DNA of 64,000 nucleotides. Origin: Acidobacteriota bacterium. Its GTDB lineage: Bacteria > Acidobacteriota > Terriglobia > Acidiferrales > UBA7541. The notes beneath the pieces were generated by a model. The model did not search any database and was not told the DNA's origin. It saw only the letters and a program-made list of their open reading frames with translations. Position 1 is the first letter of the stretch. Each line of letters starts with the position of its first letter. This document shows positions 27,247-58,035 of this stretch, in pieces. The translations under genes were made by a program, and so were the position numbers. The stretch spans positions 951-64,950 of the forward strand of contig JABCZG010000027.1 in NCBI GenBank assembly GCA_013289835.1, in the 5' to 3' direction.

Positions 27247-27424
27247 TCTGGCTCTCCGTGTAGGGCTCGCCTTCCGAGGCGGGCCGCTCCCGCAGCGCCG
27301 TAGGCGCACCACAATTTAGCCCAGCCCGTAAGGGCTGGGAATCGTAGCCAGAAAAAATCCCAAGCACCGGAGGTGCGACACCCCTCCGCGCCCTTTGCCT
27401 CCCGGACGCGATTGTGAGACGGAG

Positions 27425-35199: not shown

Positions 35200-35414
35200 T
35201 CGGTGTGCCGGCGAATCTGTTTGCTTATATCGTTTGCGACTCAGTGAAGTCAACGGGGCGAGGTGTCTTTTTCGCTGCGCGTCGCGAAAAGCCAAAGGGG
35301 CGCTATTTACAGCGCGGGTTCCTGCCAGTAGTATGCAGGGGATTCAGCACGCCACTTTGCGCCGCGCATCGCAATCGCAGCATCGCCGGCGCTTTTCTCG
35401 CGAGACGGGGCGCC

Positions 35415-37145: not shown

Positions 37146-37146
37146 T

Positions 37147-39318
37147 ATGACGACTGCCGCTACACCTCCGGGAATGGTGGACATCACGCTCGACGGGAAC
37201 GTCGTACGTGTGCCTGCGGGCGTGAGCGTTTTTGACGCGGCGCGCATGAATGGCGTCAACATCCCTACTCTTTGCCATTTGCAGAACCAGACTCCTGTGG
37301 GGGTGTGCCGGCTTTGCGTTGTGGACACGGGCGCGCGCGTTCTCACCGCTTCCTGCGTTCGAACGGTCGAGCCGGGGATGAAGGTGGTCACAAATTCGGA
37401 GAAAGTTCTGAATGCGCGCAAGACGCTGCTTGAGTTGATGATGTCCGATCATCCTTCGCCTTGCGTGCGACAACAGAATTCGGGCGATTGCGAATTGGAA
37501 ATGCATGCGAGGGCGGCTGGGGCTTCTCAAGCGCGATTCGCAAAGCGCACGGTCGCTCGCGGCAAGGATGATTCATCGCTGGCAATCGCTGTGGATCACG
37601 ACGCCTGCATTCTGTGCGACCGGTGCATCCGCGGATGTGATGAGGTAAAAAGCAATTTTGTGCTCGGGCGTATGGGCAAAGGGTACTCCGCAGGAATTGC
37701 ATTCGATCTGAATTCGCCGATGGGGGATTCCACGTGCATTTCTTGCGGCGAGTGCATGGTGTCCTGTCCCACGGGTGCGTTGACGAACAAGAGCGTCGTC
37801 GGCACTGCGATTGCGGCGGGGCCTGATGCGCAGGGCTTCGAGGCGGAAGATCTTCTGCAGATTCCCGTTTTCAAGGGAGTTTCCGGGACATTTCTTGAGC
37901 TCAATCGCGGCGCGATCGTCAAGCGCCGGTTCCGCAAGGGCGATCTCATGTGCCGCGAAGGGGAGTTCGGGTCGACAGCGTTCTACATTCTGGAAGGCAA
38001 GGCCAAAGTATCCATTTCCACGCCCATTGCGCACGTGAAGACGCAGGGTGGGGCCAAGGGATTTTTCAAACGACTTACCAGCACGCTGGTCGCGCGCGAG
38101 GAGGACAAGCGCGAGGGGGAAACGCGGGACAGGACGATTCCGATTGATGCTTCCGTGGATCTTTCGTATGGGAACCCCGTAGCGGAACTTGGGCCCGGCG
38201 ATCTATTTGGCGAAATGACGTGCATGAATTTTTACCCGCGGTCGGCGACGGTGGTTGCGGAATCGGATGTGGTCGCGTTCGAAATGCTGCGGAATGTTCT
38301 GGATATCATGCTGAAGAACAAGACGTTTCGCGCGCAACTGGATCAAACGTACCGGCGGCGGGCTCTGGAAAATCATCTGCGCGGCGTCCCCATGTTCGCA
38401 GACCTCTCGGCTGATTTCATCGAGCACCTGAAGGAGAGTGTGGAGTTGCAGCGATTTGCTCCCGGCCAGACCATCGCGCTGCAGGGCGAGCCGGCGGACT
38501 GTTTCTATCTGGTGCGCATCGGCTTTGTGAAGATTTCGGAAAATTATCCGGGCGGCGAGATGGTGCTCGCGTATTTATCGCGCGGTGATTATTTTGGAGA
38601 GATCGGATTGCTGGGCGGTGGGATTCGAACGGCGACTTGCACGGCGCTGGACCACGTTGAGGTTGTACGGATTTCAGGTGATGATTTCCGCGACATGGTC
38701 GCGCGTTTTCCGAGCGTTCGAACGGGGCTGGAAACCGTGGCGTCGGAGCGGCGCGCGGCGAATCAGCAGCGCATGCAGATGGTTCATAACGTCTCCATCG
38801 ATCAATTTTTGTCACAAGGATTGATGGAAGCGCAGAGCCTGCTGATTCTGGATTTGCAGAATTGCACGCGTTGCGATGCTTGCGTGAATGCCTGCGCGGA
38901 CGCACATGACGGCGTAACGCGGCTGGTGCGCGATGGGTTGCGTTTCGATCAATATCTTGTGGCCACAAGCTGCCGGCAGTGCCGCGATCCGCTGTGCATG
39001 GTGGGCTGCCCGGTTGGCTCGATTCGAAGGCGGAATTCGCTGGAAGTGATTATTGAAGATTGGTGCATCGGGTGCGGGCTGTGCGCGCAGAATTGTCCAT
39101 ACGGAAATATTAATTTGCATCCGTTTGAAGTGATGGTGGACGATCCGGAGCGGGCTGGGCGGAAGAAGGCGGCGATCAAGCAGAAGGCGACGTCGTGCGA
39201 TCTTTGCACGCATTTGAAAGAGCCGAGTTGCGTGTATGCGTGTCCGCATGATGCGGCGCATCGCGTGGATCCCAGGACATTTTTCGCCGAGATGCTTGGG
39301 CAGGGTTCCACGAAATGA
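37147..39318 (+). CDS. FeS protein: NuoG-type N-terminal FeS module + 2 cyclic-nucleotide-binding domains + DmsB/HybA-type 4x[4Fe-4S] module
   Basis: N-terminal 2Fe-2S ferredoxin fold (VDITLDGNVVRVPAG...CHLQ...GVCRLCVV). 4Fe-4S motifs CILCDRCIRGC and CISCGECMVSCP. Two CAP-type cassettes (FGEMTCMNFYPRSATVVA, FGEIGLLGGGIRTATCTA). C-terminal motifs CTRCDACVNAC, CRQCRDPLCMVGCP, CIGCGLCAQNCP and CDLC...CVYACP. No HTH. Confidence 0.8.
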   Translation: MTTAATPPGMVDITLDGNVVRVPAGVSVFDAARMNGVNIPTLCHLQNQTPVGVCRLCVVDTGARVLTASCVRTVEPGMKVVTNSEKVLNARKTLLELMMSDHPSPCVRQQNSGDCELEMHARAAGASQARFAKRTVARGKDDSSLAIAVDHDACILCDRCIRGCDEVKSNFVLGRMGKGYSAGIAFDLNSPMGDSTCISCGECMVSCPTGALTNKSVVGTAIAAGPDAQGFEAEDLLQIPVFKGVSGTFLELNRGAIVKRRFRKGDLMCREGEFGSTAFYILEGKAKVSISTPIAHVKTQGGAKGFFKRLTSTLVAREEDKREGETRDRTIPIDASVDLSYGNPVAELGPGDLFGEMTCMNFYPRSATVVAESDVVAFEMLRNVLDIMLKNKTFRAQLDQTYRRRALENHLRGVPMFADLSADFIEHLKESVELQRFAPGQTIALQGEPADCFYLVRIGFVKISENYPGGEMVLAYLSRGDYFGEIGLLGGGIRTATCTALDHVEVVRISGDDFRDMVARFPSVRTGLETVASERRAANQQRMQMVHNVSIDQFLSQGLMEAQSLLILDLQNCTRCDACVNACADAHDGVTRLVRDGLRFDQYLVATSCRQCRDPLCMVGCPVGSIRRRNSLEVIIEDWCIGCGLCAQNCPYGNINLHPFEVMVDDPERAGRKKAAIKQKATSCDLCTHLKEPSCVYACPHDAAHRVDPRTFFAEMLGQGSTK

Positions 39319-40295
39319 GAATGGACAAGACACAGCGCGGATGGGCCTTGGCGGCGGCCGCAATTCTCATGGTGTCGGCTGTGATCTACGTGCTTTATGC
39401 GCTTGGTTCGACGCAAGGACCGCGCGGTAGTAGCGCGATTGGCCTGACTTTTGGCGTCATCGGTTTCGCGTTTATGATTTTCGCGGCGCTGCTCGGGGCG
39501 CGGAAGCGGGTTCCGACTTGGCGTGTTGGGCGTGCACAGACCTGGATGCGCGGGCATCTTTGGCTCGGTTTTCTGGCGCTGCCGATTATTCTTTTTCATG
39601 GCGGATTTCATTTTGGCGGGACGCTCACGCGAGTTTTGATGTGGCTGCTCATTATCACGGTGTTTAGCGGGGTGTTTGGCGCGGCGCTGCAACATTATAT
39701 TCCGCGGGTGATGACTGCGGAGGTGCCGCTGGAGACGATTTACGATGAGATTGGGCACGTGCGATCGCTGCTTCGCGAAGAAGCCGATCGCGCGGTCGAA
39801 TCCGTGTGCGGTCCGATCGGCCTAGACAAAACTTCCGATGCGGAGGTTCGACGCGCTGGGGGATTCACGGCATTGCGCGCGATTGCCGCGTCTGCCGTAC
39901 CACTAAGGACATCGGCTGCGGTCAGCGCGGGCGCAAGCGCGGCCGTTGCGGCTGCACCGGAGATTATTTTGTTAAGCGAAGAGGAAAGTGCGCCGCTACG
40001 CCGATTCTATTTGCAAGAGATGCGGCCGTTTCTCGAGCATCCGGAGCGGCGCGGGCAACGGCTCGGGGATGAGCAGAAGGCGGCCTGCGCGTTTGCGGGA
40101 TTACAAACTTTGCTGCCTGCTGCGGCGCGCGCGACGCTCGACGATCTTACGGATATTTGCGACGAGGCGCGGCAACTGCAGCGGCAGGCGCGGCTGCATC
40201 ACTGGCTGCATGGGTGGTTGCTGGTGCATATTCCGCTTTCGCTTGCGCTGATTTTGCTCGGCGTGGTTCATGCGGTGATGGCGCTGCGCTACTAA
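39315..40295 (+). CDS. Integral membrane protein, putative diheme cytochrome b
   Basis: Five predicted TM helices. His pairs lie 14 positions apart in two helices (HLWLGFLALPIILFH and HIPLSLALILLGVVH). The start overlaps the upstream stop (ATGA). Heme binding is an inference. Confidence 0.6.
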   Translation: MRMDKTQRGWALAAAAILMVSAVIYVLYALGSTQGPRGSSAIGLTFGVIGFAFMIFAALLGARKRVPTWRVGRAQTWMRGHLWLGFLALPIILFHGGFHFGGTLTRVLMWLLIITVFSGVFGAALQHYIPRVMTAEVPLETIYDEIGHVRSLLREEADRAVESVCGPIGLDKTSDAEVRRAGGFTALRAIAASAVPLRTSAAVSAGASAAVAAAPEIILLSEEESAPLRRFYLQEMRPFLEHPERRGQRLGDEQKAACAFAGLQTLLPAAARATLDDLTDICDEARQLQRQARLHHWLHGWLLVHIPLSLALILLGVVHAVMALRY

Positions 40296-40304
40296 CAGGA
40301 AAAC

Positions 40305-41777
40305 GTGGCACGCACACGCACAACGAAAAAACTGGCGCAGCGGATCGACCTCAATTACTTCAAGAGGCCGACGCCGCTGAAGCGGGCGAAATTCTGGCTC
40401 AGCGTGCTTCTGCCGCTGCTTGCGCTGGTGTGGATTGCGGAGCGGACTGTTTTCAGGGACTCGCGCGTTTACAGCAGCGGACGGCTGTCGGAACCGCATG
40501 CGGTGCTTGAAAAAGAATGCGCGGCGTGTCACGTGCTGCAAGCCGGGGCGTTTTCCGCGAAGGCTGCCGATAACGCTTGCCTCGCGTGTCACGACGGGCC
40601 GATCCATCATGTCAATCAGACAAAATCGCTTGAATGCGCAGCTTGCCACTCGGAACACCGCGGCCGCGTGAACGTTCGCGCGGCAAGCGATCAGAGCTGC
40701 GCGGAATGTCATGGGGACTTGAAAGCGAGCGGCGGAGCGATACATTTCGCGTCGCGCATTCACAGCTTTGAAGATGGACACCCGGAGTTTGCGAGGCTGC
40801 GTGACGGGGCGCGCGATCCGGGGACGATCAAGCTCAATCACGCGATTCACATGAAGGCGATTCGGCGTGGGCCCAATGGGCCGATGGTCAGGCTTGAATG
40901 CCGCAATTGTCACCATGCGACCGCAGTAGATGCGGACTTGACCTACGCTGATCCGAAGTACCGCGCCGCGAGCGTGAGCTACAAAGATAGCGACGAAGTG
41001 CTTACGATTCAGGCGGGAACACTCTCGCCTTCCCATCCAATCAGCGGACGCGAGCGGATGGCGCCGGTGAAATTCGCGAGTGCTTGCGCGGCCTGCCACT
41101 TGCTTACATTCGATAAGCGATTTGACGACGGCGTTCCACACGATAAGCCGGAAATCATATATGCGTTCCTCGTGAAGAAATTCCGCGAGTATATCGCGGC
41201 GCACCCGGCGGAGCTACGCGTGCAACGTGATCCGAGCCGAGACATTACGGGAAAGCCCATGGCGCCGGAGGCTCGCATCCTCACGCCTGCGCAGTGGGTT
41301 GCGGAGCGCACCGGCGAAGCCGAGGAACTTTTGTGGCGCAAGACCTGCAACCAATGCCACAAGTTGACTCCTTCTGCAAAAGGTTTGCCAGGAAGGATTG
41401 AGCAATCGGTCCGAGAAAGTGACGCTGGCAAAGGCAATGACAACTCCGTTGAACTGCCATACGTCGTGGCGGCGAACACCACACTGCAGTGGATGCCGCA
41501 TGCGAGATTCGATCATTCAGCGCACACGGGATTTACCTGCGTGAGTTGCCATGCGAAAGCGCTTACGAGCACGGAGGCTAGCGATATTTTGTTGCCGGGG
41601 ATTGCGACTTGCCAGAAGTGCCATGCGCCGGGGGCGGAACATGCGGAGTCGCGGTGTTTCGAATGCCATACGTATCATGATTGGTCGAAGCGCAAGGAAG
41701 TGACGCCGGCGTTTACGCTGCCCGCGCTGCGAACCGGACAGGTTCGCGTTGAAACTCATTCGAACGATGGACGATAA
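40305..41777 (+). CDS. Membrane-anchored decaheme c-type cytochrome
   Basis: N-terminal signal anchor (FWLSVLLPLLALVWIA). Ten CxxCH motifs: CAACH, CLACH, CAACH, CAECH, CRNCH, CAACH, CNQCH, CVSCH, CQKCH, CFECH. GTG start. Confidence 0.85.
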   Translation: MARTRTTKKLAQRIDLNYFKRPTPLKRAKFWLSVLLPLLALVWIAERTVFRDSRVYSSGRLSEPHAVLEKECAACHVLQAGAFSAKAADNACLACHDGPIHHVNQTKSLECAACHSEHRGRVNVRAASDQSCAECHGDLKASGGAIHFASRIHSFEDGHPEFARLRDGARDPGTIKLNHAIHMKAIRRGPNGPMVRLECRNCHHATAVDADLTYADPKYRAASVSYKDSDEVLTIQAGTLSPSHPISGRERMAPVKFASACAACHLLTFDKRFDDGVPHDKPEIIYAFLVKKFREYIAAHPAELRVQRDPSRDITGKPMAPEARILTPAQWVAERTGEAEELLWRKTCNQCHKLTPSAKGLPGRIEQSVRESDAGKGNDNSVELPYVVAANTTLQWMPHARFDHSAHTGFTCVSCHAKALTSTEASDILLPGIATCQKCHAPGAEHAESRCFECHTYHDWSKRKEVTPAFTLPALRTGQVRVETHSNDGR

Positions 41778-43664: not shown

Positions 43665-45200
43665 ATGACCGCCACGGCCCAACCTTCACGAATTCGAGTG
43701 CAACCCTCGTTTGTCCGCTATCAGTATGAGACCGCGTATGACGAAATGTTCAGCGCTCCGGGTGTGCCGCGAGAGCACTACCAGGCGCTGCATCGGACGC
43801 TGCTGGGGATGCCGCAAGAGGAGCTGCTTAAACGGCAGCAGGCGGCCGACCTGACGTTCCTGCACGAGGGCATTACGTTCACCGTTTACGGCAGCAAGGA
43901 GGGGACGGAGAAGATTTTTCCGAACGACCTGGTGCCGCGGATCATTCCTTCCATCGAGTGGGCAAAAATCGAGAAGGGGCTGACGCAGCGCTTGACGGCA
44001 CTGAATATGTTCCTGCGGGACATTTATCACGAAGGGCGGATTCTTTCGGAAGGGCTTATCCCGCGGGAGCTGGTTTACAGCTGCAAACATTTCCGGCGGG
44101 AAATGCGCGGATTGAACGTACCGAGAGACACGTATGTGAGCATCTGCGGGACGGACCTGGTGCGCTTGCCGGACGGAAGCTTTGCGGTGCTCGAAGACAA
44201 TCTGCGTGTGCCCAGCGGTGTTTCGTACATGCTGGCGAACCGCAAGGTGCTGAAGCGCGTGTTCCCGACGATGTTCCGGGATTACGGCGTCTGGCCTGTG
44301 GACCACTACCCGCAGGCTCTTCTGGCTACGTTGCGGAGCTTGACGCCGGAAAATTGCCAGTACCGGCAGGATCCGACGACGATTTTATTGACCCCTGGCG
44401 TATCCAACTCCGCGTACTTCGAACACACCTTTCTGGCGCAGCAGATGGGCATCGAGCTGGTGGAGGGGCGCGACCTGCTGGTGCATGACAATGTGGTGTA
44501 CATGAGAACCACGGCGGGCCTGCGGCGGGTAGATGTGATTTATCGCCGGGTGGATGACGACTTTCTGGATCCACTGTGCTTCCGGCCGGATTCTATTTTG
44601 GGAGTTCCGGGGCTCTTCAATGCGTATCGAGCGGGAAATGTGACGCTGGCCAACGCCATCGGGACGGGCGTGGCGGATGACAAAGCGGTGTATGCGTACG
44701 TGCCTGAGATCATCAAGTTCTATTTGAACGAAGAAGCCATTCTGCCTAATGTGCCCACGTTCTTGATGACCAACGGCAAGCACCGTAATCATGTACTGCA
44801 AAACCTTGAAAAAATGGTGGTCAAGGCCGTGGGAGAATCGGGCGGTTACGGAATGCTGATCGGTCCGCACAGTACGGCGCAGCAGCGGGAGGAATTTCGC
44901 GCGCGGGTTCTGGCCGAGCCCCGGAACTATATCGCGCAGCCGACTCTGTCGTTGTCTTGCGCGCCTTGCCTGATTGATGGCGAAGTCGAGTCGCGGCACA
45001 TTGATTTGCGGCCGTACATCCTGATGGGTGAGAAAGTGACGCTGGTGCCGGGAGGGCTGACGCGTGTAGCGCTGCGCAAGGGATCGCTAGTGGTGAATTC
45101 GTCGCAGGGCGGCGGGAGCAAGGATACCTGGGTGCTGCGGGAAGGCAACGGTGAGGACCGCGTGGCGAAAATCACCAGCTTTGAACGCAAGGCTGGCTGA
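43665..45200 (+). CDS. Circularly permuted ATP-grasp protein (COG2308-type)
   Basis: 511 aa. Overall pattern (YDEMF...VPR.HY..L, ...[27 protein letters not shown]...) and its position upstream of alpha-E and transglutaminase genes. Confidence 0.75.
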
Positions 45201-45266
45201 GAAAGCATGGGAACGATGAGGCCACCGAGAAACTACTTCATGAAAACATTCCGGCGGGAGGCCGGG

Positions 45267-46223
45267 ATGCTTTCGCGCGTGGCGGACAGCTTGTACTGGA
45301 TGAGCCGGTATCTGGAACGCGCGGAGCACACCGCGCGGCTTGTGGACGTGGAGTTGCAACTGTGGCTGGATCAATCGCCGGAAACGGGAGCGGGGCGCTG
45401 GAGATTTCTGCTGGAAGGATTGCATGCGCCGGGGGCGAAGGGCGCGGTGGACGCGGCGAAGTTGATGAATGCGCTGGTATTCAGCCGCACGAATGCGTCC
45501 TCGATCGTGTCGTGCATCGCGACGGCGAGGGAAAATTTGCGGCACGTGCGGGAACAATGCAGCTCGGAGATGTGGGAGCAACTGAACCGGTTGTACCTGG
45601 ATGTGATGCAGACGAATCCGGATGAGGCTTGGATGCTGAAGTCGCACGGATTTTTCAGGGCGGTGCAGGAGGGCGCCCACCTTTTTCAGGGAATTACCGA
45701 TGCGACGATGAGCCATGGGGAAGGCTGGCAGTACATTCAGCTGGGGCGGTACGTGGAACGGACGGACACGCTGGCTTCGTTGATGGAAGCGCATTTCAAA
45801 CGAAATGCGCAGCCGGCGGATCAAGTGGTGGAAAGTGCGGAGTACCTGGAATGGGTGGCGTTGTTGCGAAGCTGCCTGGCGTTTGAGGCGTACTGCAAAG
45901 CGTATACGGCGGAGATCCGGCCGCTGCGCGTGGCGGAATTCCTGATTCTGACGCCGGAGTTTCCGCATTCGGTGCGGTTTTCGGTGGACCGCATCAACGC
46001 GGCTCTGCACGTCATCGGAGACTTGACGGAGCGGCGGGAGAAATCGCCGACGCGCATTGCGGGAAGGCTGCGGGCGCAGCTGAGCTTCAGCCAGATCGAG
46101 GAGATCATGGGGCAGGGGCCGCACTCGTATCTGGAGAATGTGCGGAGTGAATGCGCGGCGATTCACAGCGCGATTCACGAGATTTATTTTGACTATCCGA
46201 TTGAGTCGGAGATGGCGTCGTAA
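45267..46223 (+). CDS. Alpha-E domain protein (COG2307-type)
   Basis: The N-terminus MLSRVADSLYWMSRYLERAEHTARLVDV is the hallmark start of this family. Confidence 0.8.
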   Translation: MLSRVADSLYWMSRYLERAEHTARLVDVELQLWLDQSPETGAGRWRFLLEGLHAPGAKGAVDAAKLMNALVFSRTNASSIVSCIATARENLRHVREQCSSEMWEQLNRLYLDVMQTNPDEAWMLKSHGFFRAVQEGAHLFQGITDATMSHGEGWQYIQLGRYVERTDTLASLMEAHFKRNAQPADQVVESAEYLEWVALLRSCLAFEAYCKAYTAEIRPLRVAEFLILTPEFPHSVRFSVDRINAALHVIGDLTERREKSPTRIAGRLRAQLSFSQIEEIMGQGPHSYLENVRSECAAIHSAIHEIYFDYPIESEMAS

Positions 46224-46241
46224 TTTTTCGAACGGAGTGAT

Positions 46242-47201
46242 ATGGCGTATTCGGTGCGGCACATCACGCGGTTTCGGTATGAACCGGCGGTGCGGGAAAG
46301 CGTGATGGAGGTGCGGCTGCAGCCGCGAACGGATATGCGGCAGCGTTGTCTTTCGTTTTCGCTCGACGTGACTCCGCGGGCCAACATCATGGTGTATAGG
46401 GATTTTTTTGGGAACGCCGTGCACCACTTTGATATTCCGGGGCAACATGAGGTGGTGGAAGTGGCGGCGCAGGCGATTGTGGAGGTTCTGCCGCCGACGC
46501 CTTCGCTGGCCACTTATGCATGCGATTGGGAAGAGCTTGATGAGCGCGTGGCGGAGGGGGATTACTGGGAGATGCTGCTTCCCAGCCATTTCGCGCGGCC
46601 GACGGAGCTATTGGAAAAGTTGCGGGCTGAGCTGAAGCTTCGGCGGCAGGGGAATCCGCTGGAGTTGCTGCAGGAATTGAATACGGAACTGTATGAATCT
46701 TTCGAGTACGCTCCAAACACGACGAAAGTGGATTCGCCGATTGATGATGCGCTGGAGGCGCGGCGGGGAGTTTGCCAGGATTTCGCGCACATTATGATTG
46801 CGCTGGTGCGGCAGCTGAAAATTCCGTGCCGGTATGTGAGCGGGTATTTGTACCACGAGGACAAAGTGAAGGACCGCTCACCGGCCGGCGCGACGCATGC
46901 GTGGGTGGAGGCTTATCTCGGAGAGATGGGATGGGTGGCGTTTGACCCGACGAACAATTTGCCGGGCTGTGAGCGGCATATTCGCGTGGCCGTGGGGCGC
47001 GACTACGCCGATGTTCCGCCGACGCGCGGCGTGTACAAGGGAGAGGCGGCTAGCGAATTGAGCGTGCTTGTGTCGGTCGCCCCGATCGATGCGCCGGAGC
47101 CAGAGGAATTGCCGCCCGTCATGGTGATACGATCCAAACCATTGAACTCGGCTTCGAGTTTGGCGCTTGACCACCAGCAGCAACAGCAGCAACAACAATA
47201 A
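46242..47201 (+). CDS. Transglutaminase-family protein (Bact_transglu_N + transglutaminase core) with poly-Gln tail
   Basis: Catalytic-core motifs GVCQDFAHIMIAL, HAWVEAY and GWVAFDPTN. It ends in HQQQQQQQQ. Confidence 0.85.
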   Translation: MAYSVRHITRFRYEPAVRESVMEVRLQPRTDMRQRCLSFSLDVTPRANIMVYRDFFGNAVHHFDIPGQHEVVEVAAQAIVEVLPPTPSLATYACDWEELDERVAEGDYWEMLLPSHFARPTELLEKLRAELKLRRQGNPLELLQELNTELYESFEYAPNTTKVDSPIDDALEARRGVCQDFAHIMIALVRQLKIPCRYVSGYLYHEDKVKDRSPAGATHAWVEAYLGEMGWVAFDPTNNLPGCERHIRVAVGRDYADVPPTRGVYKGEAASELSVLVSVAPIDAPEPEELPPVMVIRSKPLNSASSLALDHQQQQQQQQ

Positions 47202-49102: not shown

Positions 49103-50089
49103 CTAAAGCCTAATAGCGTCCATTTTAGGCTTTTCGTAGACGTCATCCTCGCCTGGGTAGCGGAGGCGGTCCTCGAAGCGGCCAGTCTCTTTTGCCAGCG
49201 CCCAGACCAGGCTCTCCCCGGCAGGAACTGTCTTCGGCTCGCTGCGAAAAACGGGATCCTCAAACGCCAGCGAAGCGTCAATCCATTGCCACCCGGCAGT
49301 CTCGAAGGCCGCCATCACGTCGGGAAGCACGAAAGCATTCAAAGGGTTGAAATGCATCAGCAGCGTGTGGCGAATGTCGCGGCCCAGCACGTCCAGAGCA
49401 AGCTGCCGGTAAAACGCCGCGCGATCCAGGAGATGCCCGATCAAGTAGTCACGATAAGGGGCGACTGGTGACTTCGGGTCTTTCCCGAGACGGTCGACGA
49501 AGCGCTGACTGACGTACCAGTCGGAAGCGTCAATGGTGACGTGGCCGACGCGGTAGCCGCGCTCCTTCAGCAACGCGCGAAAGCGGTCGCGCTTCTCCGC
49601 GGTGTCGCCTTCCTTCAAAAACGGATAGCGAAACAACGCGGTGCGGTTGTGATACGGAGCGATTACTTTTTCATTCTTCAGAAAATCGACGGCAAAGTCG
49701 GCGTAGCTGGTCTGCTCGCCATAAAATTTATGTGAATAGGAATGATTGCAGATGAGGTGGCCCGCCTGGTCCCAGGCGGAAACCAGTTTGGCGCCGTCGG
49801 CGTCGTCCACACGCATCCCACAAACGAACAGGGAGGCGCGGACGTCTTTCGCGGAAATCGCTTTCAGAATGCGTCCGTTGGCCTCCTGCCATCGGACGAT
49901 GGAGCCCAGTGAGAGCGTGGGATCGTCCATCGTGAGCGCGACCTGGGGACGCGCGGAATTGTTGGGAGTGGTCTTCGGCGTAGTGCTTTGCAGAAAAGAG
50001 AAAGCACGAAGCTCGGGCGGGAGGAGTTGAGAATAAGCCGCGACCGAGGCGGCTTTTACGGTAGAAGAGAGGAATCTACGACGTTTCAT
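49103..50089 (-). CDS. Tat-signal polysaccharide deacetylase-family (CE4) protein
   Basis: Start at MKRRRFLSSTVKAASVAAY (twin-arginine leader). NodB-like motifs ALTMDDP, NHSYSH and FRYPFL. It lies 10 nt downstream of the multiheme gene. The track's 50527 start overlaps that gene and is rejected. Confidence 0.7.
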   Translation of the reverse strand: MKRRRFLSSTVKAASVAAYSQLLPPELRAFSFLQSTTPKTTPNNSARPQVALTMDDPTLSLGSIVRWQEANGRILKAISAKDVRASLFVCGMRVDDADGAKLVSAWDQAGHLICNHSYSHKFYGEQTSYADFAVDFLKNEKVIAPYHNRTALFRYPFLKEGDTAEKRDRFRALLKERGYRVGHVTIDASDWYVSQRFVDRLGKDPKSPVAPYRDYLIGHLLDRAAFYRQLALDVLGRDIRHTLLMHFNPLNAFVLPDVMAAFETAGWQWIDASLAFEDPVFRSEPKTVPAGESLVWALAKETGRFEDRLRYPGEDDVYEKPKMDAIRL

Positions 50090-50099
50090 GGCAGCGACC

Positions 50100-53000
50100 T
50101 CAGTAAAAAGAGTCCAACCACTCTCGGGCGCGAGTGAAGAAGGACGAGTACGAGGGCAAGGATGTCGATGAGGACGAAGTGGAGCGAGGCTGCTCCACAG
50201 CGTCGTCTGTGACGATGTAGGGTTCGCCCGTGCTCGGATGAATGTAGAGTGAGCGCATTTCCGCGCGGTTGAGCGGGCGAGCGCCGCGCCGACCAAACAC
50301 GGCGAGCTGGTTCCCGGATTCATCCACCGCCCTGTCACGATCAATACCTTTGGAAATGGCCAGCGCGGGGCCGCGCGTGTGGGCCGTGGCAATGAGTTTA
50401 GGCGTGGGTCGCGGGCTAAATCCCGAAAAATGCGCGGAGTCATCCCACGGAGAGAGAATTTGCAGGACGCGAAGCCCGTTCTTCCCGTCGGCAACGAAGG
50501 CGAACGCGCTGGCTGCAACCATTCCAATCTTGACGTCGTTCACGTCGTTGAGCTGGCCTTCTGCGCTAAAGATTTGATCCAGCTTAGGCGCGTCGGGTTT
50601 TTCAACGTCAACAATCGCAATTCCCTGCTTCCCTGCCGAAACGTACGCGTACGTGCGAGCGACGTAAACGTTTCGAGCATCTTCGACAGGAACGAGCGCA
50701 TTTGCGACGGGCTTCGGCTGGGAAAGATCGGTAACGTCGAGAACCTTTAGGCCGTCGCGATCCACGACAAATGCGTAGCGGAATTGCACGGCGATGCCAC
50801 GAGGATCGTTGAGCGCGGGCGCACCGATGTTGGCCGTCACGCGCGGAGCAAGCGGATTATCGAGATCTACCACAACAAGCGCCTTGTCCGTGAGGACGTA
50901 GGCGTATGTCCCGACGATGGAGATGCGGCGCGCGCCTGTGAGCACGCCGCCGGGATTGAAAGCTAAAGCGCGCTTCAAGAAATTGTTGGCAGGATTGCCG
51001 TCGAGTAGCGTGCCTACGCCGGGACTTTTCGATTTGAGACTCGGGTCGCCGATGATCACGAGTCCTTCTTCTTTGTCCGCGACGTAGAGGAAGCCATACA
51101 GCAGATGGATGGCTTGCTCCTCGTTCTCCGGCAATGGCTGCCGCAGTGGATCGACACCGAGCGTCGTCGGAGAAGCAACGGCTAGAGCGTTTTTCGTCGG
51201 AACGTAAAAACGCTGGCCGATGGGCGAAACCGGCGCGGTGGACATTTTCTCTGAGAACCCTTTGTTATCAATGTTGGCGATGTCAAAGACGCGAAGACCG
51301 CCCGGTCCCGTCGCGGCATAGGCATATTCGCCGCGAGCCTGGATATCAAGGACGTTGCCCGTGTGTTCTGCGGCGGTGCTTAGTTCGCGGTGATGCTCCA
51401 GGAATTTCTTGTAATTGTCCGGATAGGCGACGCGCTGTAGATCGCTGCCGTAGATGGCTTCCGGCTCATCGTGTTCCGCGACGGCGACCGCTTCGAAACC
51501 TTTATTGCCCGTGGCTACGTAAACGTAGCGGCCCATGAAATTCATGAAGTTGGTGCCCTGCAACAGCAGTTGCGCCATCCACGCGTTATTGTCATTCTGC
51601 GCGGAGACGTGGCAATCGCTGCACTGCTTCGTTTCTTTGGCGCGCACCGTATGTGGCACGAACGTGGAAAACGCCTGGCCGGAAAAACCGGGCGTGGAAA
51701 TGGTTTGCTGCGTGTAGTAAAGCCACTCGCGATTGGCATTTTGCGAACTCACCAAGACCGCGCAAGACGATCGCGCGGGAGCGACGCGGTGGCCGGTGAC
51801 CGTGCCGTCCACGCCCAGCATATAGATGTCATCGCGCAGAACCTGAAAGTTGTAGCTGGTGTAATTTCTCGTGAGCAAGCCTTCGTTGTGCAGCATCGGC
51901 TTACGCGCATTTGCAGTCATCTGTAAATGGCAGCCGAAACAGGTGGGCGTCCACGACGTGTGGCACGAATAGCAAGTCATACTGCTATTCGCATGGGCGA
52001 GGGTTGCGTCATCGCTGGGCATTTGCGAGGGAACGACACCGTTTTTGTTCAGCAGTTTCGCGCGCATCGACTTCATGCTGAAGTGCACGTTGCCGGGAGT
52101 AATCGTGTCCAGCGTCTGAACGATTTCCCATTCCTTATTTTCCTCCGACATCGAACGCTGAATCACTTTGTCGCCGCGCCACTCGAATCGCCGCAAACCC
52201 CACGGCGTGCGCAGCGTGTCCAAATGTCGCCCGCCTTCCGGCGCTGCGGGCCCTGACGTGATCAGCGCCGCTTTCTTTCGAATCGTGCCGTGGCAGTCAA
52301 TGCAATCAATTTCCACTGCGGCTCGCGGCTCGCCGTAGATTTTTCCGTTGCCGTGATTGTCCTGTGCGAAATGGCAATCGTTGCACTGCATCCCTTTTTC
52401 AAGATGGATGTCGGCCAGATGGACGGCCTTCCCGAAGCGGTCTGGATCATCGAACGCGATTTTCCCGCCGTCTTTATCGAGCCAGTTCCCTTTGCGATCG
52501 TGATTGAAAACGGCGCGGAACACCCAGCCATGACCATGGAAGTCCGCGAACTGTGTAGCCTTCAATTGTTTGTTGAATTCCGCGCTGCCAACATTTTCCA
52601 GAAACTTTTCATCGCCCCACAATCCGCGGACAGCTGCTCCTTCGGGATTACGCACAAACGATTGGTAGCGCTGCTCTTCAGTGGGATTGCGCTGCTCTTT
52701 CGGATACATTTTGTCGCCGTCAATTTCGTTGTCCCACCATGTGAGTCCGAAATACGTTGTGACCATATTCGTTCCGGGGTGAATGTGGCAAATCATGCAT
52801 TGGCTCGACGGAATGGAACGCGTGAACGTGTGCCGGATGGGGTGGCCGGATTCATTTTTCCGAATTGTGGGATCGGACGAGGCACTGAAGCCGGAGTGCC
52901 CAAATCCCGCGTACGCGCCGGAGTGCGCCGGATCGCGGTCGTTTGCGTAAATCACGTGGCATGCGGTGCAGCCGCTTGCGCGGTAGTCTCCAGGATGATC

Positions 53001-53945
53001 GTCGGTGCCGGGCAGAGAAAGAATCGGATCGAGCAAACGTGTTTTCTGCAGGCCGAGAAAAACGGGATCGGTGCGAAGCTCCGTGCCGAACCCGCGGTCG
53101 CTGAGTTTGTCATCGGGTTTCCCCGGATCCTCTTCGCGGGTGGGATTGCCGATTTCCGCTTTCTTGCGCCCGCCCCGCTCAAAAACCCGCAAGACATTCC
53201 CGGGCTGCGAAGTTTCCCAGCGAAAAAGAGGATCGAGTTCCGGAAGGACTCCCTTGGCGCGCGTCTCCTCTGGAGTGGGACTCGGAAACGTTTTGATGGA
53301 TTTCGGCTTTCCATCGCGGTCGTAGCTTTCGCCGAAACGTGCATTTTTTGTCGGATAGCCGCCATTGTTGTAAAGCGCGGCGCCCCACAGCAATCCGGCG
53401 TGCGTCATCATGCTGGTAGACACAGCGCGGGTTTCGGTGGCGTGACAGCCCAATGTGCCGCACGTCTCCGGAGCCACACGCAGATCACCGGGGTTGACGA
53501 ACTTGATGTACTCCGCGGATTCCTTCAGCCACTTGGTGTAGGTGCGCTCGGGAAGCGCGGAGCGATTTCGGAAGGAAGGATCACGCGGCTGGACGTGCGC
53601 CTTTTCTTTCGCGGAATTGTATTCGGCAGAATTCGGTGCGGTACCCGGCGCAAGGGAAATGGAGACGTTGCCACCGTGGCAATCCGTGCAACCGAGGCGA
53701 ACGGTCTTCGTGGGATGCATCGTCGGCTCATCGGTCGAGGTGTGGCAGGAAATGCAGCCAGCGGATTTGCGGTCGGCTTCTTCCTGGGATTGGCCGCGGA
53801 AAAAGTTTGGCGATGCGTCTCGCGATGGATGAGCGCCGGAAGCGGTCGGAGCGGAGCGAAGAGCGAATAATAAAGATAACGCGGAGACGCCGAGTGCGCT
53901 GAGAACTCGCAGAGGAGAGGGAACGCGTAGGCGTTTGTTGGTCAT
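50100..53945 (-). CDS. Large secreted multiheme cytochrome c fused to an LVIVD-repeat beta-propeller region
   Basis: Signal peptide. Nine CxxCH motifs (CISCH, CTDCH, CTACH, CMICH, CNDCH, CIDCH, CYSCH, CFGCH, CSDCH) plus one Cx4CH (CGTLGCH) in the first ~780 aa. The last ~450 aa carry six LVIVD-type repeats (GLRVFDI, GLVIIGD, ALVVVDL, GLKVLDV, GIAIVDV, GLRVLQI). Confidence 0.85.
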
Positions 53946-53957
53946 GATGCGCGCATC

Positions 53958-56198
53958 TCAGAACGTAAGCTTTACCGAGCCGAAAAGCGAGAACAGCGTG
54001 CGGCTCGTATAAATGTCTATGAAACCCTGACCGGGCTGAAGGGCGGAAGCGCCGCCGGTGAGGACGACGTTTTCCGAGAGCGGCGGGCGGTATTCGACGC
54101 CGACGCCGAAATCTTCGCCAATCGTGTGGTGAATCGGAGACTGAAAAAGAATGAATTCCAACGGCTCGGTGCGTTCGAAGCGGAGATAGTTAAAATTCGC
54201 AAAGCCTTTCAGCTTGGGCGTGATATCAAAATCGGCGCCGGCATTCGCGATAAAGATGCCGGGGTTGACGAAATTGGCCTGGCCTTCTTCTTTGCTGGAG
54301 CGCAGAGATGGAATCAGGCTACCGGACGAGGTGAGCAGAATGCCGGAACCGAGGAGCCGAATCGCTTCCCGGTTCCAAAAACTGAACAGACCGCCAGCAA
54401 AATTGGGAAGATCATCGATGGCGTCGAAGCCGCGTGCACGGCCATCGCGAGGATTGGCGTCGCCGGAAGTGTAGAACGTCGAAACGCGGTAGCGGATCCA
54501 GTCCTTATCGTAGGAGAGTTCCACTGCGGCCATCTGCGCGTTGATGGTGACGGGCCTTCCCGCGATGGGATTGAACGTGTCTTCTCCCACGGCTTGATAA
54601 AAAGCGTGGGTGAGATTGAGGCGGCGAATGTGGCCGCTGCCCAGCCAGCCGAAATAGCCGACGCGGATGCCATGAAGAATCGGGCCGGCACCCGGATTCT
54701 GATTGATCACGTTGCCGACGGGCGCAGGGCGGACCAGGAAACCGTTGTCGTCATAGTGCAGGCTGGGATCGTCTTTGTTCCACGCGCCGACGAATTCCGC
54801 CGTGTAGCCGGGGAAAAAGAAATCCTGCAAGTACACGTTGCCGAGGACCACCTGCTGATGGCGGCGGTCGAAGGTGTTGAGGCCGCTGTTGGTGTTTTTC
54901 TCGAGAAGATGAAAATAGGCGACGTTGTATTCGATGCGATCGGAATGGAGATCGCCGAAGATTCGCAACGCAGGCTGCTCGTCCACGAAAAGAAAGCCGC
55001 GGAAATCGGCGTTGAATTGCTGGATGCCCGCGCGCGCGGAAATGAAATCATAGTTGGGGCCAAGATCGTGGAGTTTCACTTCGACGAAAGCTTCCTGCAG
55101 GCCGAGGTGATCGTCAAAGCGATTGGTTCCACTTCGAGGGCTGGGGCCTACGATGCCCAGTTCTCGCACATCCAAATCGTTCAGGCTGATCTCGGGCGTG
55201 ATTCGAATGCGCCAGTCCACAGGCTTGAAGGAAGCATCGCCATGAAATAAATCAAAACTGAAGCGCAGCGTTTGATCGAAGAACGCTTGCTCGCCGCGCC
55301 CGAAGAATCCCGAACTGCCCGGGCGCTCCGCGCTGACGTTGCTGGGGGAAGGGACGCGGCGGCCGTCAAAAAAAGTTTCGGAGGAAGCGGTGATGTTCAG
55401 AAAGGTTTGCTGGCCGAGAAATGCCGGCCAGATCGGCTCATCGCCCTTGAAGCGATTGCGGTTGAAAGGATCGTACCAGTGGGGCTTGGTATAGATGTAT
55501 TCGCCTTTTTGCGAATAGCGGCGATAGTCGGGTTGCTCGAGAGCCCAGCGATTGGGAACGGTGTTGTAGATGTCGGCGACCGGAGGCAGCGCGTCCGGCG
55601 AAATATTTTCAATGTAGCTGGGATCGGAGTCGAGACGATGGCGAAACTCGCGATAGGTGCCGAAGGAAGGTTGCCCTTCGGCGGAAAGTGCGGGACCTAG
55701 CTCGGGGAGACGCGGGAGGCGGGAACGCGCTTCCATGGCTGCGGCGGTTACGAGAGAGATTTCCAGAGTCAGTACTTCGTTGGGCTGAAGAGCGACATCG
55801 GAAAGAACGAAAGGCGCGTAGTCCTTGGCTTCGACGCGAAGTTCGTAATGGCCTGGTGGCAAGGGGAACAACCGAAAAACGCCCTCCGCCGAGGCAGTGC
55901 CGGAAAAGAGCCGGCCGGACTGCAGATTGCGCACCGTAAGCGCGGCTCCGGGGACGGGCAGCGCGATGTTGGAAAAGCCTGCATCGCGTACGATGCCATC
56001 GAGCGCGGCCGTGTTTTGCGCCTGCTGGCGAGGAATGCGCGTGGGGGAACCTTGTTCGTGGGATTGCGCTGCGGGGCTCTGCGCTGGCGTGGATGTCTGC
56101 TGCCGCGGAGTTGCAGCGCCGGGCGGGGAAGAAAGGAACGAAAAACAGCAAGCCGCGCAGAACGCGCGTCGCACTCGCCGCGGGGAGAAGAAGTTCAT
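53958..56198 (-). CDS. Outer-membrane beta-barrel protein with N-terminal CarboxypepD_reg-like domain
   Basis: Signal peptide. A carboxypeptidase-regulatory-like fold (LDGIVRD...GVFRLFPLPPGHYELRVEAKDYAP), then ~580 aa of alternating beta-strand pattern ending in the aromatic terminus ...GSVKLTF. No TonB plug motifs noticed. Confidence 0.65.
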   Translation of the reverse strand: MNFFSPRRVRRAFCAACCFSFLSSPPGAATPRQQTSTPAQSPAAQSHEQGSPTRIPRQQAQNTAALDGIVRDAGFSNIALPVPGAALTVRNLQSGRLFSGTASAEGVFRLFPLPPGHYELRVEAKDYAPFVLSDVALQPNEVLTLEISLVTAAAMEARSRLPRLPELGPALSAEGQPSFGTYREFRHRLDSDPSYIENISPDALPPVADIYNTVPNRWALEQPDYRRYSQKGEYIYTKPHWYDPFNRNRFKGDEPIWPAFLGQQTFLNITASSETFFDGRRVPSPSNVSAERPGSSGFFGRGEQAFFDQTLRFSFDLFHGDASFKPVDWRIRITPEISLNDLDVRELGIVGPSPRSGTNRFDDHLGLQEAFVEVKLHDLGPNYDFISARAGIQQFNADFRGFLFVDEQPALRIFGDLHSDRIEYNVAYFHLLEKNTNSGLNTFDRRHQQVVLGNVYLQDFFFPGYTAEFVGAWNKDDPSLHYDDNGFLVRPAPVGNVINQNPGAGPILHGIRVGYFGWLGSGHIRRLNLTHAFYQAVGEDTFNPIAGRPVTINAQMAAVELSYDKDWIRYRVSTFYTSGDANPRDGRARGFDAIDDLPNFAGGLFSFWNREAIRLLGSGILLTSSGSLIPSLRSSKEEGQANFVNPGIFIANAGADFDITPKLKGFANFNYLRFERTEPLEFILFQSPIHHTIGEDFGVGVEYRPPLSENVVLTGGASALQPGQGFIDIYTSRTLFSLFGSVKLTF

Positions 56199-56406
56199 GC
56201 GCTCGGCCTAAATGAATGGCTGAAAAAATCGGAATCGCGTACTAGATAACAATATCGAGAAGCAACGAGCAACAGTTTTCCCCAGCGGGGAGACACATTC
56301 GATAACGCGCTCTGACGCTTCCGCCATTCACCAGTACGCCGCAAGCGGCGGGCAAATCCGTTGAGCGCTCCTGAATGACTGTGATACGAAGAAATGTACT
56401 CCCACG

Positions 56407-58035
56407 ATGAAAATTGTTCACACACTGCGAAAGCCGGCGGAATCCCGGCACGCGCTGCAAGCCCGCCAGGAGACGCTGGCGCTGGGCGTGGCTCTGGCGT
56501 TGGGAATCGCCGGGGCGCTGTTGATGTTGTTGATCGGATGCGGAGGCGGTGGCGGCACAACAGTTGCGCCGCCAATCATTCCGCCGGTGCAGGCACTGCA
56601 AGTGGCCGACGTACAGAATGTTGTGACGGCGGCGGTGAATTCGGTGAATGTGGACATGGTGGTCGCGGTGGTGGACCGCGCGGGATTTGTGCTGGGAGTC
56701 TTTCGAACGCAAAACGCCCCGGCCACGGCGATTGGAAATTTCGGGCAGACGCAAGACGCAAATGATGTGGCTGTGGCGCTTGCGCGGACGGGCGCTTTTT
56801 TCAGTAATGATCAAGCTCCGCTCTCGTCCCGCACCGTGCGCTTCATCAGCGGGATTCATTTTCCGCCCGGCGTAACGAACCAGCCGCCTGCGGATCTCTA
56901 CGGAATCGAAAACACGAATCGCGGCTGCACGCTGATCAATAGCCCAGCGTTCGAAAACGGGATTCCTCCGTCGCTGGCGCTTGGCGGCGGATTCGGGCTC
57001 GGAATTCTCACAGGAAAAGCCGACATCAACGATTCGAATGCAGCCGACGTGAATCCCGGCGGCGTTCCCATTTTCTATAAAAATGTTGTGGTTGGCGGAA
57101 TCGGTGTCGTGACTTCCTCTAGCAATCTGAATGTCGCGGAATATGCCGCGTTCGCCGGCAGCACCACGCAGCGCGGTGGTCCGGGAGACAATTTTGGCCC
57201 GACGCCCGCTGCGCCTGGAGTGGTTTTCATTGGCGGAATTGCCTTGCCTTTCGTGGATCAAATTTCACTGCCTTCCGGTTTTTCCGGAGGGCCGGTTGCA
57301 GGTACGGGAAGTTTCTTGGTCGCTCCCGCAAACAGCCAGGGACAGCCGCCCGAAGGCGACTTGATCACTCCCGCGCCAGGGCCATTGGGAGGATTGAGCG
57401 CAGCTGATGTAACGGGCATTCTAAACAATGCTGAAGCGACGGCCAACACCACGCGCGCGGCGATTCGATTGCCGCTCGGTTCGAAAGCACGGATGGTGAT
57501 CGCCGTCGCGGATCTGGATGGAACCATCATTGGATTGCGGCGCATGCAGGATTCCACGGTGTTCAGCATTGACGTCGCCGCAAGCAAGGCGCGAAACATG
57601 GTGTACTTCAATAGCGCTTCACGAACGGCAGCCGACCTGAACGGCGTGCCGATGGGCACCGCGGTCACGAATCGCACCATCAGTTTTGGAGCACAGCCGC
57701 TCTATCCACCGGGAATCGATGGTTCCAGCGCCGGTCCATTTTTTAGTTTATATGCGATGGATGTTGCAAATCCCTGCACGCAAGGATTCCAAAGCGGAGC
57801 GGCGAATTCGAACAAGAGCGGAATCGTTTTCTTCCCTGGCAGCGCGGGCTTGTATCGCAACGGCACTCTGGTGGGCGGATTGGGAGTGAGCGGTGACGGC
57901 GTAGACGAAGACGACTACGTGACGAATGGCGGAACGGCAGGACTCGAAGCACCGACAAATATTCGGGCCGATCAAATCATGGACCAGGGCGTGCGGCTTC
58001 CCTATTTCAAATTCCCCAGAAATCCCACCGACTGA
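56407..58035 (+). CDS. Lipoprotein with two GlcG/HbpS-like (DUF336) domains
   Basis: Lipobox LLIGC followed by a Gly run. Two DUF336-like cores (MVVAVVDRAGFVLGVFR... and MVIAVADLDGTIIGLRRM...SIDVAASKARN...GGLGVSGDGVDEDDYV). Confidence 0.65.
   Translation: MKIVHTLRKPAESRHALQARQETLALGVALALGIAGALLMLLIGCGGGGGTTVAPPIIPPVQALQVADVQNVVTAAVNSVNVDMVVAVVDRAGFVLGVFRTQNAPATAIGNFGQTQDANDVAVALARTGAFFSNDQAPLSSRTVRFISGIHFPPGVTNQPPADLYGIENTNRGCTLINSPAFENGIPPSLALGGGFGLGILTGKADINDSNAADVNPGGVPIFYKNVVVGGIGVVTSSSNLNVAEYAAFAGSTTQRGGPGDNFGPTPAAPGVVFIGGIALPFVDQISLPSGFSGGPVAGTGSFLVAPANSQGQPPEGDLITPAPGPLGGLSAADVTGILNNAEATANTTRAAIRLPLGSKARMVIAVADLDGTIIGLRRMQDSTVFSIDVAASKARNMVYFNSASRTAADLNGVPMGTAVTNRTISFGAQPLYPPGIDGSSAGPFFSLYAMDVANPCTQGFQSGAANSNKSGIVFFPGSAGLYRNGTLVGGLGVSGDGVDEDDYVTNGGTAGLEAPTNIRADQIMDQGVRLPYFKFPRNPTD

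Follow-up and report, generated by a model that had tools for sequence, protein, structure and literature searches.

The subject of this report is a pair of adjacent genes, encoding a predicted outer-membrane beta-barrel protein and a secreted multiheme c-type cytochrome that ends in a beta-propeller of the LVIVD type, found in a stretch of 64,000 nucleotides (nt) from an Acidobacteriota bacterium (contig JABCZG010000027.1; the whole stretch is hereafter the window). Barrel and cytochrome belong to new families and form a real, ancient and conserved pair, which is linked to genes of electron transfer. Because the pairing is strict, because heme domains are fused to the barrel in some relatives and because a redox module is linked to the genes, the pair is best read as a porin-cytochrome-like module for electron transfer through the cell envelope, built from families unrelated to those of the known systems; judging from sequence comparison, the probability of this reading may be put at roughly one half. 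An earlier note on this DNA had proposed such a module, with a polysaccharide deacetylase as its third gene; the conserved pair, the fusions of a tetraheme domain to the barrel and the linkage to inner-membrane and periplasmic cytochromes speak for the module, while the deacetylase has turned out not to be a partner.

According to the list of open reading frames (ORFs) and their translations, the three genes are co-directional on the minus strand (lengths in amino acids, aa):

53958-56198, minus strand: predicted outer-membrane beta-barrel protein, 746 aa, C-terminus ...VKLTF

50100-53945, minus strand: decaheme and LVIVD cytochrome, whole gene, 1281 aa

49103-50089, minus strand: CE4 polysaccharide deacetylase with a twin-arginine (Tat) signal, 328 aa

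Read directly, the spacer between barrel and cytochrome is 12 nt long (TGA-gatgcgcgcatc-ATG) and that between cytochrome and deacetylase 10 nt (TGA-ggtcgctgcc-ATG); the deacetylase is listed as an ORF at 49103-50527 starting from an upstream TTG, the real start being the ATG at 50089 (MKRRRFLSS...). The anatomy given in the earlier note is in agreement with these data on every count, namely the three minus-strand genes with gaps of 12 and 10 nt (translations and spacer reading), the 746-aa barrel with an N-terminal CarboxypepD_reg domain and a terminal Phe (Pfam and translation), the 1281-aa secreted LVIVD cytochrome with about ten hemes (ten heme motifs and the LVIVD Pfam match) and the twin-arginine-signal CE4 deacetylase as the third gene (Pfam, catalytic motifs and the KRRRFLS signal). 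Barrel and cytochrome are probably co-translated; scans of the window for promoters and terminators performed no better than on shuffled sequence, and the search against Rfam found no leader element. A minus-strand ORF at 56242-57261 is taken as spurious, being devoid of a Pfam match and overlapping a conserved gene for an HbpS-like protein on the opposite strand.

The distribution of the two proteins was followed by scoring, for each of them, 8000 database candidates sharing words with the query, at a threshold of E<=0.001; among these candidates 7835 relatives of the cytochrome and 4036 of the barrel were found, the 120 best-scoring matches per query being at least 82% identical and named "hypothetical" or "carboxypeptidase-like". 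When the heme domain was searched exhaustively against representatives clustered at 50% identity, 3018 matches were obtained, including full-length proteins of 1090-1700 aa at 40-57% identity. Relatives of the cytochrome occur in at least 594 species genomes (one genome per species was scanned), where the source records always name them "hypothetical protein"; the same name, and an origin from metagenome-assembled genomes (MAGs), is carried by all ten distant relatives obtained by cluster look-up. The best 80 loci of these genomes (designated by L numbers below) were inspected for synteny by tblastn with the window proteins against all loci and by clustering of all ORFs; almost all of them come from Acidobacteriota MAGs (Acidoferrales, Terriglobales, Bryobacterales, Blastocatellia/Pyrinomonadaceae and Thermoanaerobaculia), a few being labelled Methylomirabilia, Fervidibacter or Isosphaerales.

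Wherever a locus holds both genes (71 of 71), the barrel lies directly upstream of the cytochrome on the same strand, an arrangement which is therefore not due to chance; the barrel is absent only at contig ends and in one Isosphaeraceae locus (L083), and the identities of the two proteins to their window versions co-vary (r=0.92). In some Blastocatellia loci small ORFs intervene between the two genes; they vary from one locus to the next and were not retained as components. Co-occurrence in related genomes had been suggested in the earlier note as a check on the three genes, together with the possibility that they are not syntenic elsewhere; the pair is syntenic across several classes of Acidobacteriota (from Acidoferrales to Blastocatellia and Thermoanaerobaculia) and in the few loci labelled Methylomirabilia, Fervidibacter or Isosphaerales, at all 71 loci just mentioned, and the deacetylase, present at about 10 of 80 loci, is alone in failing to recur.

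The electron-transfer genes to which the pair is linked form, in the window, a module of four genes, convergent with the pair:

35151-37145, plus strand: NuoE-NuoF fusion, 664 aa

37108-39318, plus strand: iron-sulfur (FeS) protein resembling HoxU and the N-terminal part of NuoG, with two cyclic-nucleotide-binding (cNMP) domains and a ferredoxin domain, 736 aa

39315-40295, plus strand: membrane protein with two H-x13-H pairs, 326 aa

40305-41777, plus strand: membrane-anchored decaheme cytochrome, 490 aa

Pairs of histidines spaced H-x13-H are the classic signature of transmembrane electron carriers with two hemes b; since the membrane protein has two such pairs, His81/95 and His305/319, and all 14 sequences compared (27-71% identity) preserve these residues without exception, it is probably, as far as motifs can tell, a di-heme-b carrier of this kind. 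In the anchored cytochrome of the window ten CXXCH motifs were counted, a number shared by its full-length relatives at most loci; those of L051 and L055 have seven. As a whole, the module at 35151-41777 gives the impression of a path by which electrons of NAD(P)H could reach periplasmic cytochromes without the help of quinones; the literature yielded nothing specific on a module of NuoF, cNMP and cytochrome components. In the window about 7 kb of unrelated genes separate it from the pair, encoding phosphofructokinase (PFK), an ATP-grasp/alpha-E/transglutaminase trio, DJ-1, a HAD protein and the CE4 deacetylase. At about 20 loci the module directly adjoins the pair, the membrane protein being there of about 306 aa. 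In L051 and L060 pair, module and additional cytochromes are all co-directional, in the order heme-barrel, cytochrome of the 1281-aa type, tetraheme c3, one or two octaheme cytochromes, and then a cNMP/ferredoxin-membrane-domain fusion and an FHA-anchored multiheme cytochrome.

The barrel of these last two loci belongs to a group of four relatives in which a class III cytochrome c domain with four CXXCH motifs, above threshold for that class in L051, stands at the N-terminus in place of CarboxypepD_reg:

L051, 3806-5944: tetraheme-barrel fusion

L055, 1754-3871: tetraheme-barrel fusion

L060, 3451-5757: tetraheme-barrel fusion

L072, 2746-5076: tetraheme-barrel fusion

In such proteins the hemes sit on the barrel protein itself, as in Cyc2, a fusion that would make little sense if the barrel protein had no part in electron transfer.

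The barrel protein of the window is built of the following parts:

N-terminal signal peptide

nt 55752-55997, aa 68-149: CarboxypepD_reg sandwich

aa ~180-260: conserved linker

aa ~265-745: core

aa 746: C-terminal Phe

CarboxypepD_reg is the sole Pfam match of the protein (49 bits); its conserved core (aa ~210-746) has no Pfam match even at E<=10, and nothing was found in the PDB by sequence or profile search. Profile searches and a structure prediction of the barrel had been recommended in the earlier note; they gave an approximate strand number and a fold class, at the cost of a low-confidence model and with the core unmatched in Pfam. In the AlphaFold2 (AF2) model, obtained from an alignment of 40 sequences and used for strand count and fold class only, the CarboxypepD_reg sandwich is followed by 18 long antiparallel strands, most of which are matched by an amphipathicity scan over a 69-sequence alignment (no strand in aa 578-648). 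The top Foldseek match of the model is the 18-strand barrel AlgE (PDB 3RBH, 4AFK; E 5e-12, identity 10-12%), with TM-scores (TMt) of 0.51-0.61 that are to be read in the light of the low confidence of the model (predicted local distance difference test score, pLDDT, 54.5); Occ, OmpF and MOMP porins come next, and neither a TonB-dependent transporter nor MtrB (6R2Q) appears among the top 50. An aromatic C-terminal residue is present in 12 of the 12 diverse relatives read. The most conserved stretch, about 70 residues at aa 574-651 (nt 54246-54479) including GFDAIDDLPNFAGGLFSFWNRE and LRSSKEEGQANFVNPG, has no strand pattern in the amphipathicity scan and was left unmodelled by AF2; perhaps it forms an internal loop lying in the pore, or binds a partner. 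Taken together, these features suggest that the protein is probably an outer-membrane barrel of a new sequence family, with about 18 strands in the predicted model.

The partner cytochrome consists of two domains:

51456-53783, minus strand: decaheme domain, aa ~55-830, with nine CXXCH motifs and one CX4CH, after a Sec-type signal peptide

50256-51398, minus strand: LVIVD beta-propeller, aa ~850-1230, forming the C-terminus

The heme motifs, at aa 64, 86, 162, 326, 383, 521, 548, 658, 669 and 775, all show little or no variation among 16 relatives (39-84% identity), and the same holds for at least ten further histidines outside the motifs. The propeller is recognised by the LVIVD family of Pfam (PF08309; 83.9 bits against a cut-off of 20.2) and, weakly, by a choice-of-anchor B model of NCBIfam; five LVIVD-like repeats were located by regular expression, starting at aa 874, 950, 1057, 1099 and 1148, and a sixth by eye near aa 1012. 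The fusion of heme domain and propeller is kept in relatives at 39-57% identity, and the literature gave nothing specific on a multiheme cytochrome fused to an LVIVD domain. On the heme side, weak matches to cytochrome c3/c7 families of Pfam are accompanied by a match to ExtM of NCBIfam (NF040943) confined to aa 511-780 and by partial, sub-threshold matches to ExtN and ExtO over aa 649-781; the ExtM score, 60.3 bits against an equivalog cut-off of 800, indicates a shared heme module and not membership of the family. A lipobox is lacking after the Sec signal, and none is consistently present in 75 relatives.

On the reading favoured here, the NuoEF-like flavoprotein would oxidise cytoplasmic NAD(P)H and hand the electrons to the FeS clusters of the FeS/cNMP protein, a step possibly gated by cyclic nucleotides; the 326-aa four-histidine protein, probably binding two hemes b, would carry them over the inner membrane and load the membrane-anchored decaheme cytochrome, from which they would reach periplasmic multiheme cytochromes and finally the barrel-cytochrome pair, predicted to reside at the outer membrane, whose two members would be in contact and would pass the electrons to an acceptor at or beyond that membrane, for instance Fe(III), Mn(IV) or humic quinones. 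As to the LVIVD propeller, it would offer a surface for docking or contact. It is only tentatively suggested that the pair is the outer-membrane end of an undescribed electron-export chain, independent of the quinone pool and widespread in Acidobacteriota, and equal caution is due to the proposed order of that chain (NAD(P)H, NuoEF-like protein, cNMP-regulated FeS protein, di-heme-b carrier, anchored decaheme, periplasmic cytochromes, pair), which may well be wrong. The density of ten hemes in about 800 residues, the conserved histidines that could make all of these hemes bis-His, the partial five-heme module resembling ExtM/ExtN, the AlgE- or porin-like fold and the precedents, cited below, of propellers encoded with outer-membrane cytochromes are additional features in support of envelope electron transfer.

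Several observations weigh on the other side. The cytochrome, whose exposure at the surface is only presumed, carries neither a lipobox nor a recognised surface-sorting signal, and its conservation would be out of the ordinary in a surface cytochrome (83-93% identity among the 120 best-scoring database relatives, 52-57% between classes), to the point that the protein looks more like an enzyme or a part of a tightly packed complex. The barrel, with about 18 strands compared to 26 in MtrB, finds in its operon no slim MtrA-like cytochrome able to thread it, and its AF2 model has a pTM of 0.40 beside the low pLDDT; the AF2 model of the heme domain (33 sequences, 34-94% identity) is worse still, with a pLDDT of 43.7, unusable for deciding on fold, ligation or an open coordination site, and the Foldseek result obtained with it is meaningless noise. 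In the window the four-gene module, about 7 kb away and convergent, lies outside the operon of the pair. All 80 inspected loci come from MAGs, and no physiological or expression data were found for the family. The proposal of an electron path across the outer membrane draws on comparative genomics and a single low-confidence model, and its chances appear about even.

Comparison with the known systems shows similarities of plan together with differences of component. As in MtrCAB, MtoAB and PioAB (of Shewanella, Sideroxydans and Rhodopseudomonas), a barrel gene adjoins that of a secreted decaheme cytochrome, the heme density of the 1281-aa protein is close to that of MtrC and OmcA, and genes for multiheme cytochromes of the inner membrane and the periplasm are linked to the locus. 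The proteins of the pair are, however, not members of the Mtr families, and the barrel has about 18 strands and not the 26 of MtrB (PMC8406198); the cytochrome, for its part, is fused to a propeller and is no lipoprotein. In particular, the core of the barrel has no match to the MtrB/PioB family (PF11854) at E<=10, a result accompanied by a model of low confidence; the score of the cytochrome against MtrC/OmcA (PF22113 and related families) is 17.6 bits against a cut-off of 30; and the operon has no decaheme gene of about 300-350 aa of the MtrA/DmsE type (TIGR03508/03509), the sole DmsE-family match in the window being that of a 485-aa protein at 33838-35295, with 17 bits against a cut-off of 192. 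The original impression that the two parts are unlike MtrB and MtrC is in keeping with these scores, the absence of a lipobox and the strand count.

In Cyc2 of iron oxidisers a heme domain stands N-terminal to a porin of 16 strands (PMC8406198), and the barrels described here are likewise small (about 18 strands) and preceded by an N-terminal periplasmic domain, which in L051, L055, L060 and L072 is a c-type cytochrome. Differently from Cyc2, which has one heme and works alone, the fused domain here has four hemes and occurs at a minority of loci, and the window barrel, with its heme-free CarboxypepD_reg domain, belongs to a family always paired with a separate decaheme protein. The window barrel, lacking any CXXCH, was rejected as a member of Cyc2, and the tetraheme relatives are to be considered an architectural parallel and not homologues.

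With the Pcc and Ext conduits of Geobacter (OmbB-OmaB-OmcB, ExtABCD, ExtHIJKLMNOPQS; PMC6148476, PMC5877670) the pair shares the combination of a porin-like barrel and several multiheme cytochromes, and its cytochrome has in common with ExtM and ExtN a five-heme module of about 250 aa (E 1e-16); on the other hand, the operon contains no lipoprotein outer cytochrome, rhodanese or periplasmic octaheme cytochrome, and the barrel families are unrelated. Propellers encoded together with outer-membrane cytochromes have been described in Desulfovibrio ferrophilus (DFE_0448-0465; PMC5815863), and an acidobacterial cluster for extracellular electron transfer, EET1, with a propeller, a porin and multiheme cytochromes, is expressed in anoxic peat (bioRxiv 10.64898/2026.05.27.727921). 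Both resemble the loci described here in bringing barrel, beta-propeller and multiheme cytochromes together; they differ in that their propeller is separate and of the NHL/DUF5128 type and their porin model MtrB-like, whereas here LVIVD is fused to the cytochrome and the barrel model resembles AlgE, and the EET1 preprint (10.64898/2026.05.27.727921) does not describe the barrel-cytochrome pair. The likeness to AlgE itself is one of fold, in a model of low confidence: the identity is 10-12%, there is no match to Alginate_exp (PF13372), and no polysaccharide-synthesis genes are found around the pair.

Other readings of the same data have to be weighed against envelope electron transfer. The main alternative, serious though unlikely, is that the cytochrome is a periplasmic multiheme oxidoreductase acting on a small substrate, with the propeller forming or gating the active site, the barrel providing a dedicated substrate channel of the AlgE or Occ type and the linked modules feeding electrons to it. 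Hemes combined with a propeller are a typical design among redox enzymes, cd1 nitrite reductase and hydrazine synthase being examples; the cross-class conservation of both proteins is very high (52-57% for the cytochrome), the size and the best fold matches of the barrel are those of substrate-specific channels, and a Sec signal unaccompanied by lipobox or surface anchor would fit a periplasmic enzyme. Yet all ten motifs are CXXCH or CX4CH, neither a CXXCK, as expected in NrfA and the octaheme nitrite reductases, nor another recognised catalytic heme motif being present, and the conserved histidines outside the motifs, at least ten in number, are enough for every one of the ten hemes to be bis-His ligated. 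A search of the PDB with the family profile of the cytochrome gave weak matches (E~5e-5) only at two di-heme modules of TvNiR and NrfA; these could be counted for an enzyme, but only generic di-heme modules align, and the match was dropped as evidence of enzymatic function. A plain channel, moreover, leaves the tetraheme domain carried by the barrel in four lineages without explanation. That the same hardware works inward, drawing electrons from Fe(II), Mn(II) or reduced humics outside the cell, in the manner of Cyc2 or MtoAB, seems improbable: the resemblance of the fused cytochrome-barrel variants to Cyc2 (PMC8406198) would favour it, and direction cannot come from sequence alone, but the first protein of the module is a NuoEF-like flavoprotein oxidising NAD(P)H, no subunit that could couple energy to the uphill reduction of NAD+ is obvious in the module, no link to a terminal oxidase was found, and the genes for glucose-6-phosphate dehydrogenase (G6PDH) and PFK lying nearby in several loci fit the disposal of reductant better.

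Two further proposals concern the barrel in the first place. A unit for export and modification of an exopolysaccharide, comparable to PgaA/PgaB or Pel, with an AlgE-like exporter, the CE4 enzyme and a cytochrome unrelated to both, would account for the best fold match of the barrel and for a Tat-exported deacetylase with all its catalytic motifs encoded across tight spacers; it is very unlikely, given that the CE4 gene is missing from about 70 of the 80 loci and the barrel never separates from the cytochrome, that no glycosyltransferase or polymerase genes lie nearby and that Alginate_exp is not matched at E<=10. An N-terminal CarboxypepD_reg domain is common on TonB-dependent receptors of Acidobacteriota and Bacteroidota, and the earlier note had considered that the barrel might be a plugged transporter of this type, unrelated to the cytochrome. 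This can be given hardly any credence: neither Plug nor TonB_dep_Rec is matched at E<=10, the model has about 18 strands and not 22, its best fold matches (barrels of 16-18 strands) include no TonB-dependent transporter in the top 50, and the pairing with the cytochrome is strict. The barrel is neither a plugged TonB-type receptor nor MtrB-like.

The deacetylase is a genuine CE4 enzyme by its Pfam match (PF01522, Polysacc_deac_1; 52.6 bits against a cut-off of 23.1) and by its motifs, all of which are present (TMDD53, HSYSH116, RYPF154 and LMH244) in addition to the KRRRFLS Tat signal. It was detected in nine loci by ORF clustering and in ten by tblastn outside the window's own contigs, all of them from the nearest relatives (identity of the cytochrome 81% or more); in other Acidoferrales a HAD gene directly follows the cytochrome, and elsewhere HAD or other genes do. 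Since synteny fails outside the closest relatives, the deacetylase is not a component of the system; it was inserted between the genes for cytochrome and HAD protein recently and in this lineage only, being co-transcribed with the pair in the window. Of the two roles envisaged for it in the earlier note, functional partner and mere passenger, its restricted occurrence favours the second.

Acidobacteriota rank with the most abundant bacteria of soils and have repeatedly been proposed as cyclers of iron and humic matter, mostly from generic counts of multiheme cytochromes (e.g., PMC7980381). The pair, present in at least 594 species genomes and among thousands of metagenome proteins, has gone unannotated and is not covered by a recent survey of acidobacterial extracellular electron transfer. 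If it is an envelope-spanning conduit, it would provide a specific and trackable marker gene pair for the redox cycling of Fe, Mn and humic substances in soil, and would add a fourth architecture for the passage of electrons at the outer membrane to those of Mtr, Pcc and Cyc2; the module of NAD(P)H-oxidising, FeS and di-heme-b proteins would then be a new quinone-free route from cytoplasm to periplasm. Should the export chain exist as drawn, mostly heterotrophic soil bacteria could dump reductant on Fe(III), Mn(IV) or humic matter by means of outer parts of which none is homologous to Mtr, Pcc or Cyc2. If, on the contrary, the cytochrome acts as an enzyme in the periplasm, it would be a multiheme oxidoreductase of very wide distribution.

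Among the neighbouring genes, the one divergent from the operon recurs with the pair:

56407-58035, plus strand: HbpS-like/DUF336 exported protein, 542 aa

It matches PF03928 of Pfam, a domain of heme-binding type, with 62 bits over three stretches and has an LIGC lipobox. Homologues occur at 41 of 81 loci, upstream and divergent or downstream of the pair, also in distant classes; the lipobox pattern is found in 22 of the 37 near-full-length relatives (>=480 aa), the protein being a lipoprotein in Terriglobia. It might act as a chaperone for heme, as a sensor of redox state or as an additional carrier.

The 485-aa protein at 33838-35295 (minus strand), just upstream of the NuoEF-like module, is a multiheme cytochrome with a cytochrome c554-type domain, which may serve the proposed chain as a carrier in the periplasm; near the pair, cytochromes resembling c554 are also seen in L020, L063, L078 and L083. 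A cytochrome P450 gene adjoins it (the two genes lie at 33838-35295 and 32371-33765, both on the minus strand). A membrane adenylate/guanylate cyclase of the CHASE2 type stands beside the pair, on its upstream side, at seven loci (L021, L024, L032, L034, L042, L071 and L083), and G6PDH lies near the pair at six, L026 and L039 included; the former hints at a control by cyclic nucleotides, in agreement with the cNMP domains that the FeS protein carries, and the latter at a supply of NADPH.

In the block of about 7 kb that separates module and pair in this lineage, the trio mentioned above occupies 43665-47201 (plus strand) and comprises circularly permuted ATP-grasp, alpha-E and transglutaminase-like proteins. 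The sole Rfam match in the window is an Acido-Lenti-1 small RNA at 27294-27339 (minus strand; RF01687, 53.8 bits against a gathering score of 37), in keeping with DNA from an acidobacterium. An unrelated tricorn-type protease of 1133 aa, with PD40 propeller repeats and tricorn C1, PDZ and S41 peptidase domains, is encoded at 21163-24564 (plus strand).

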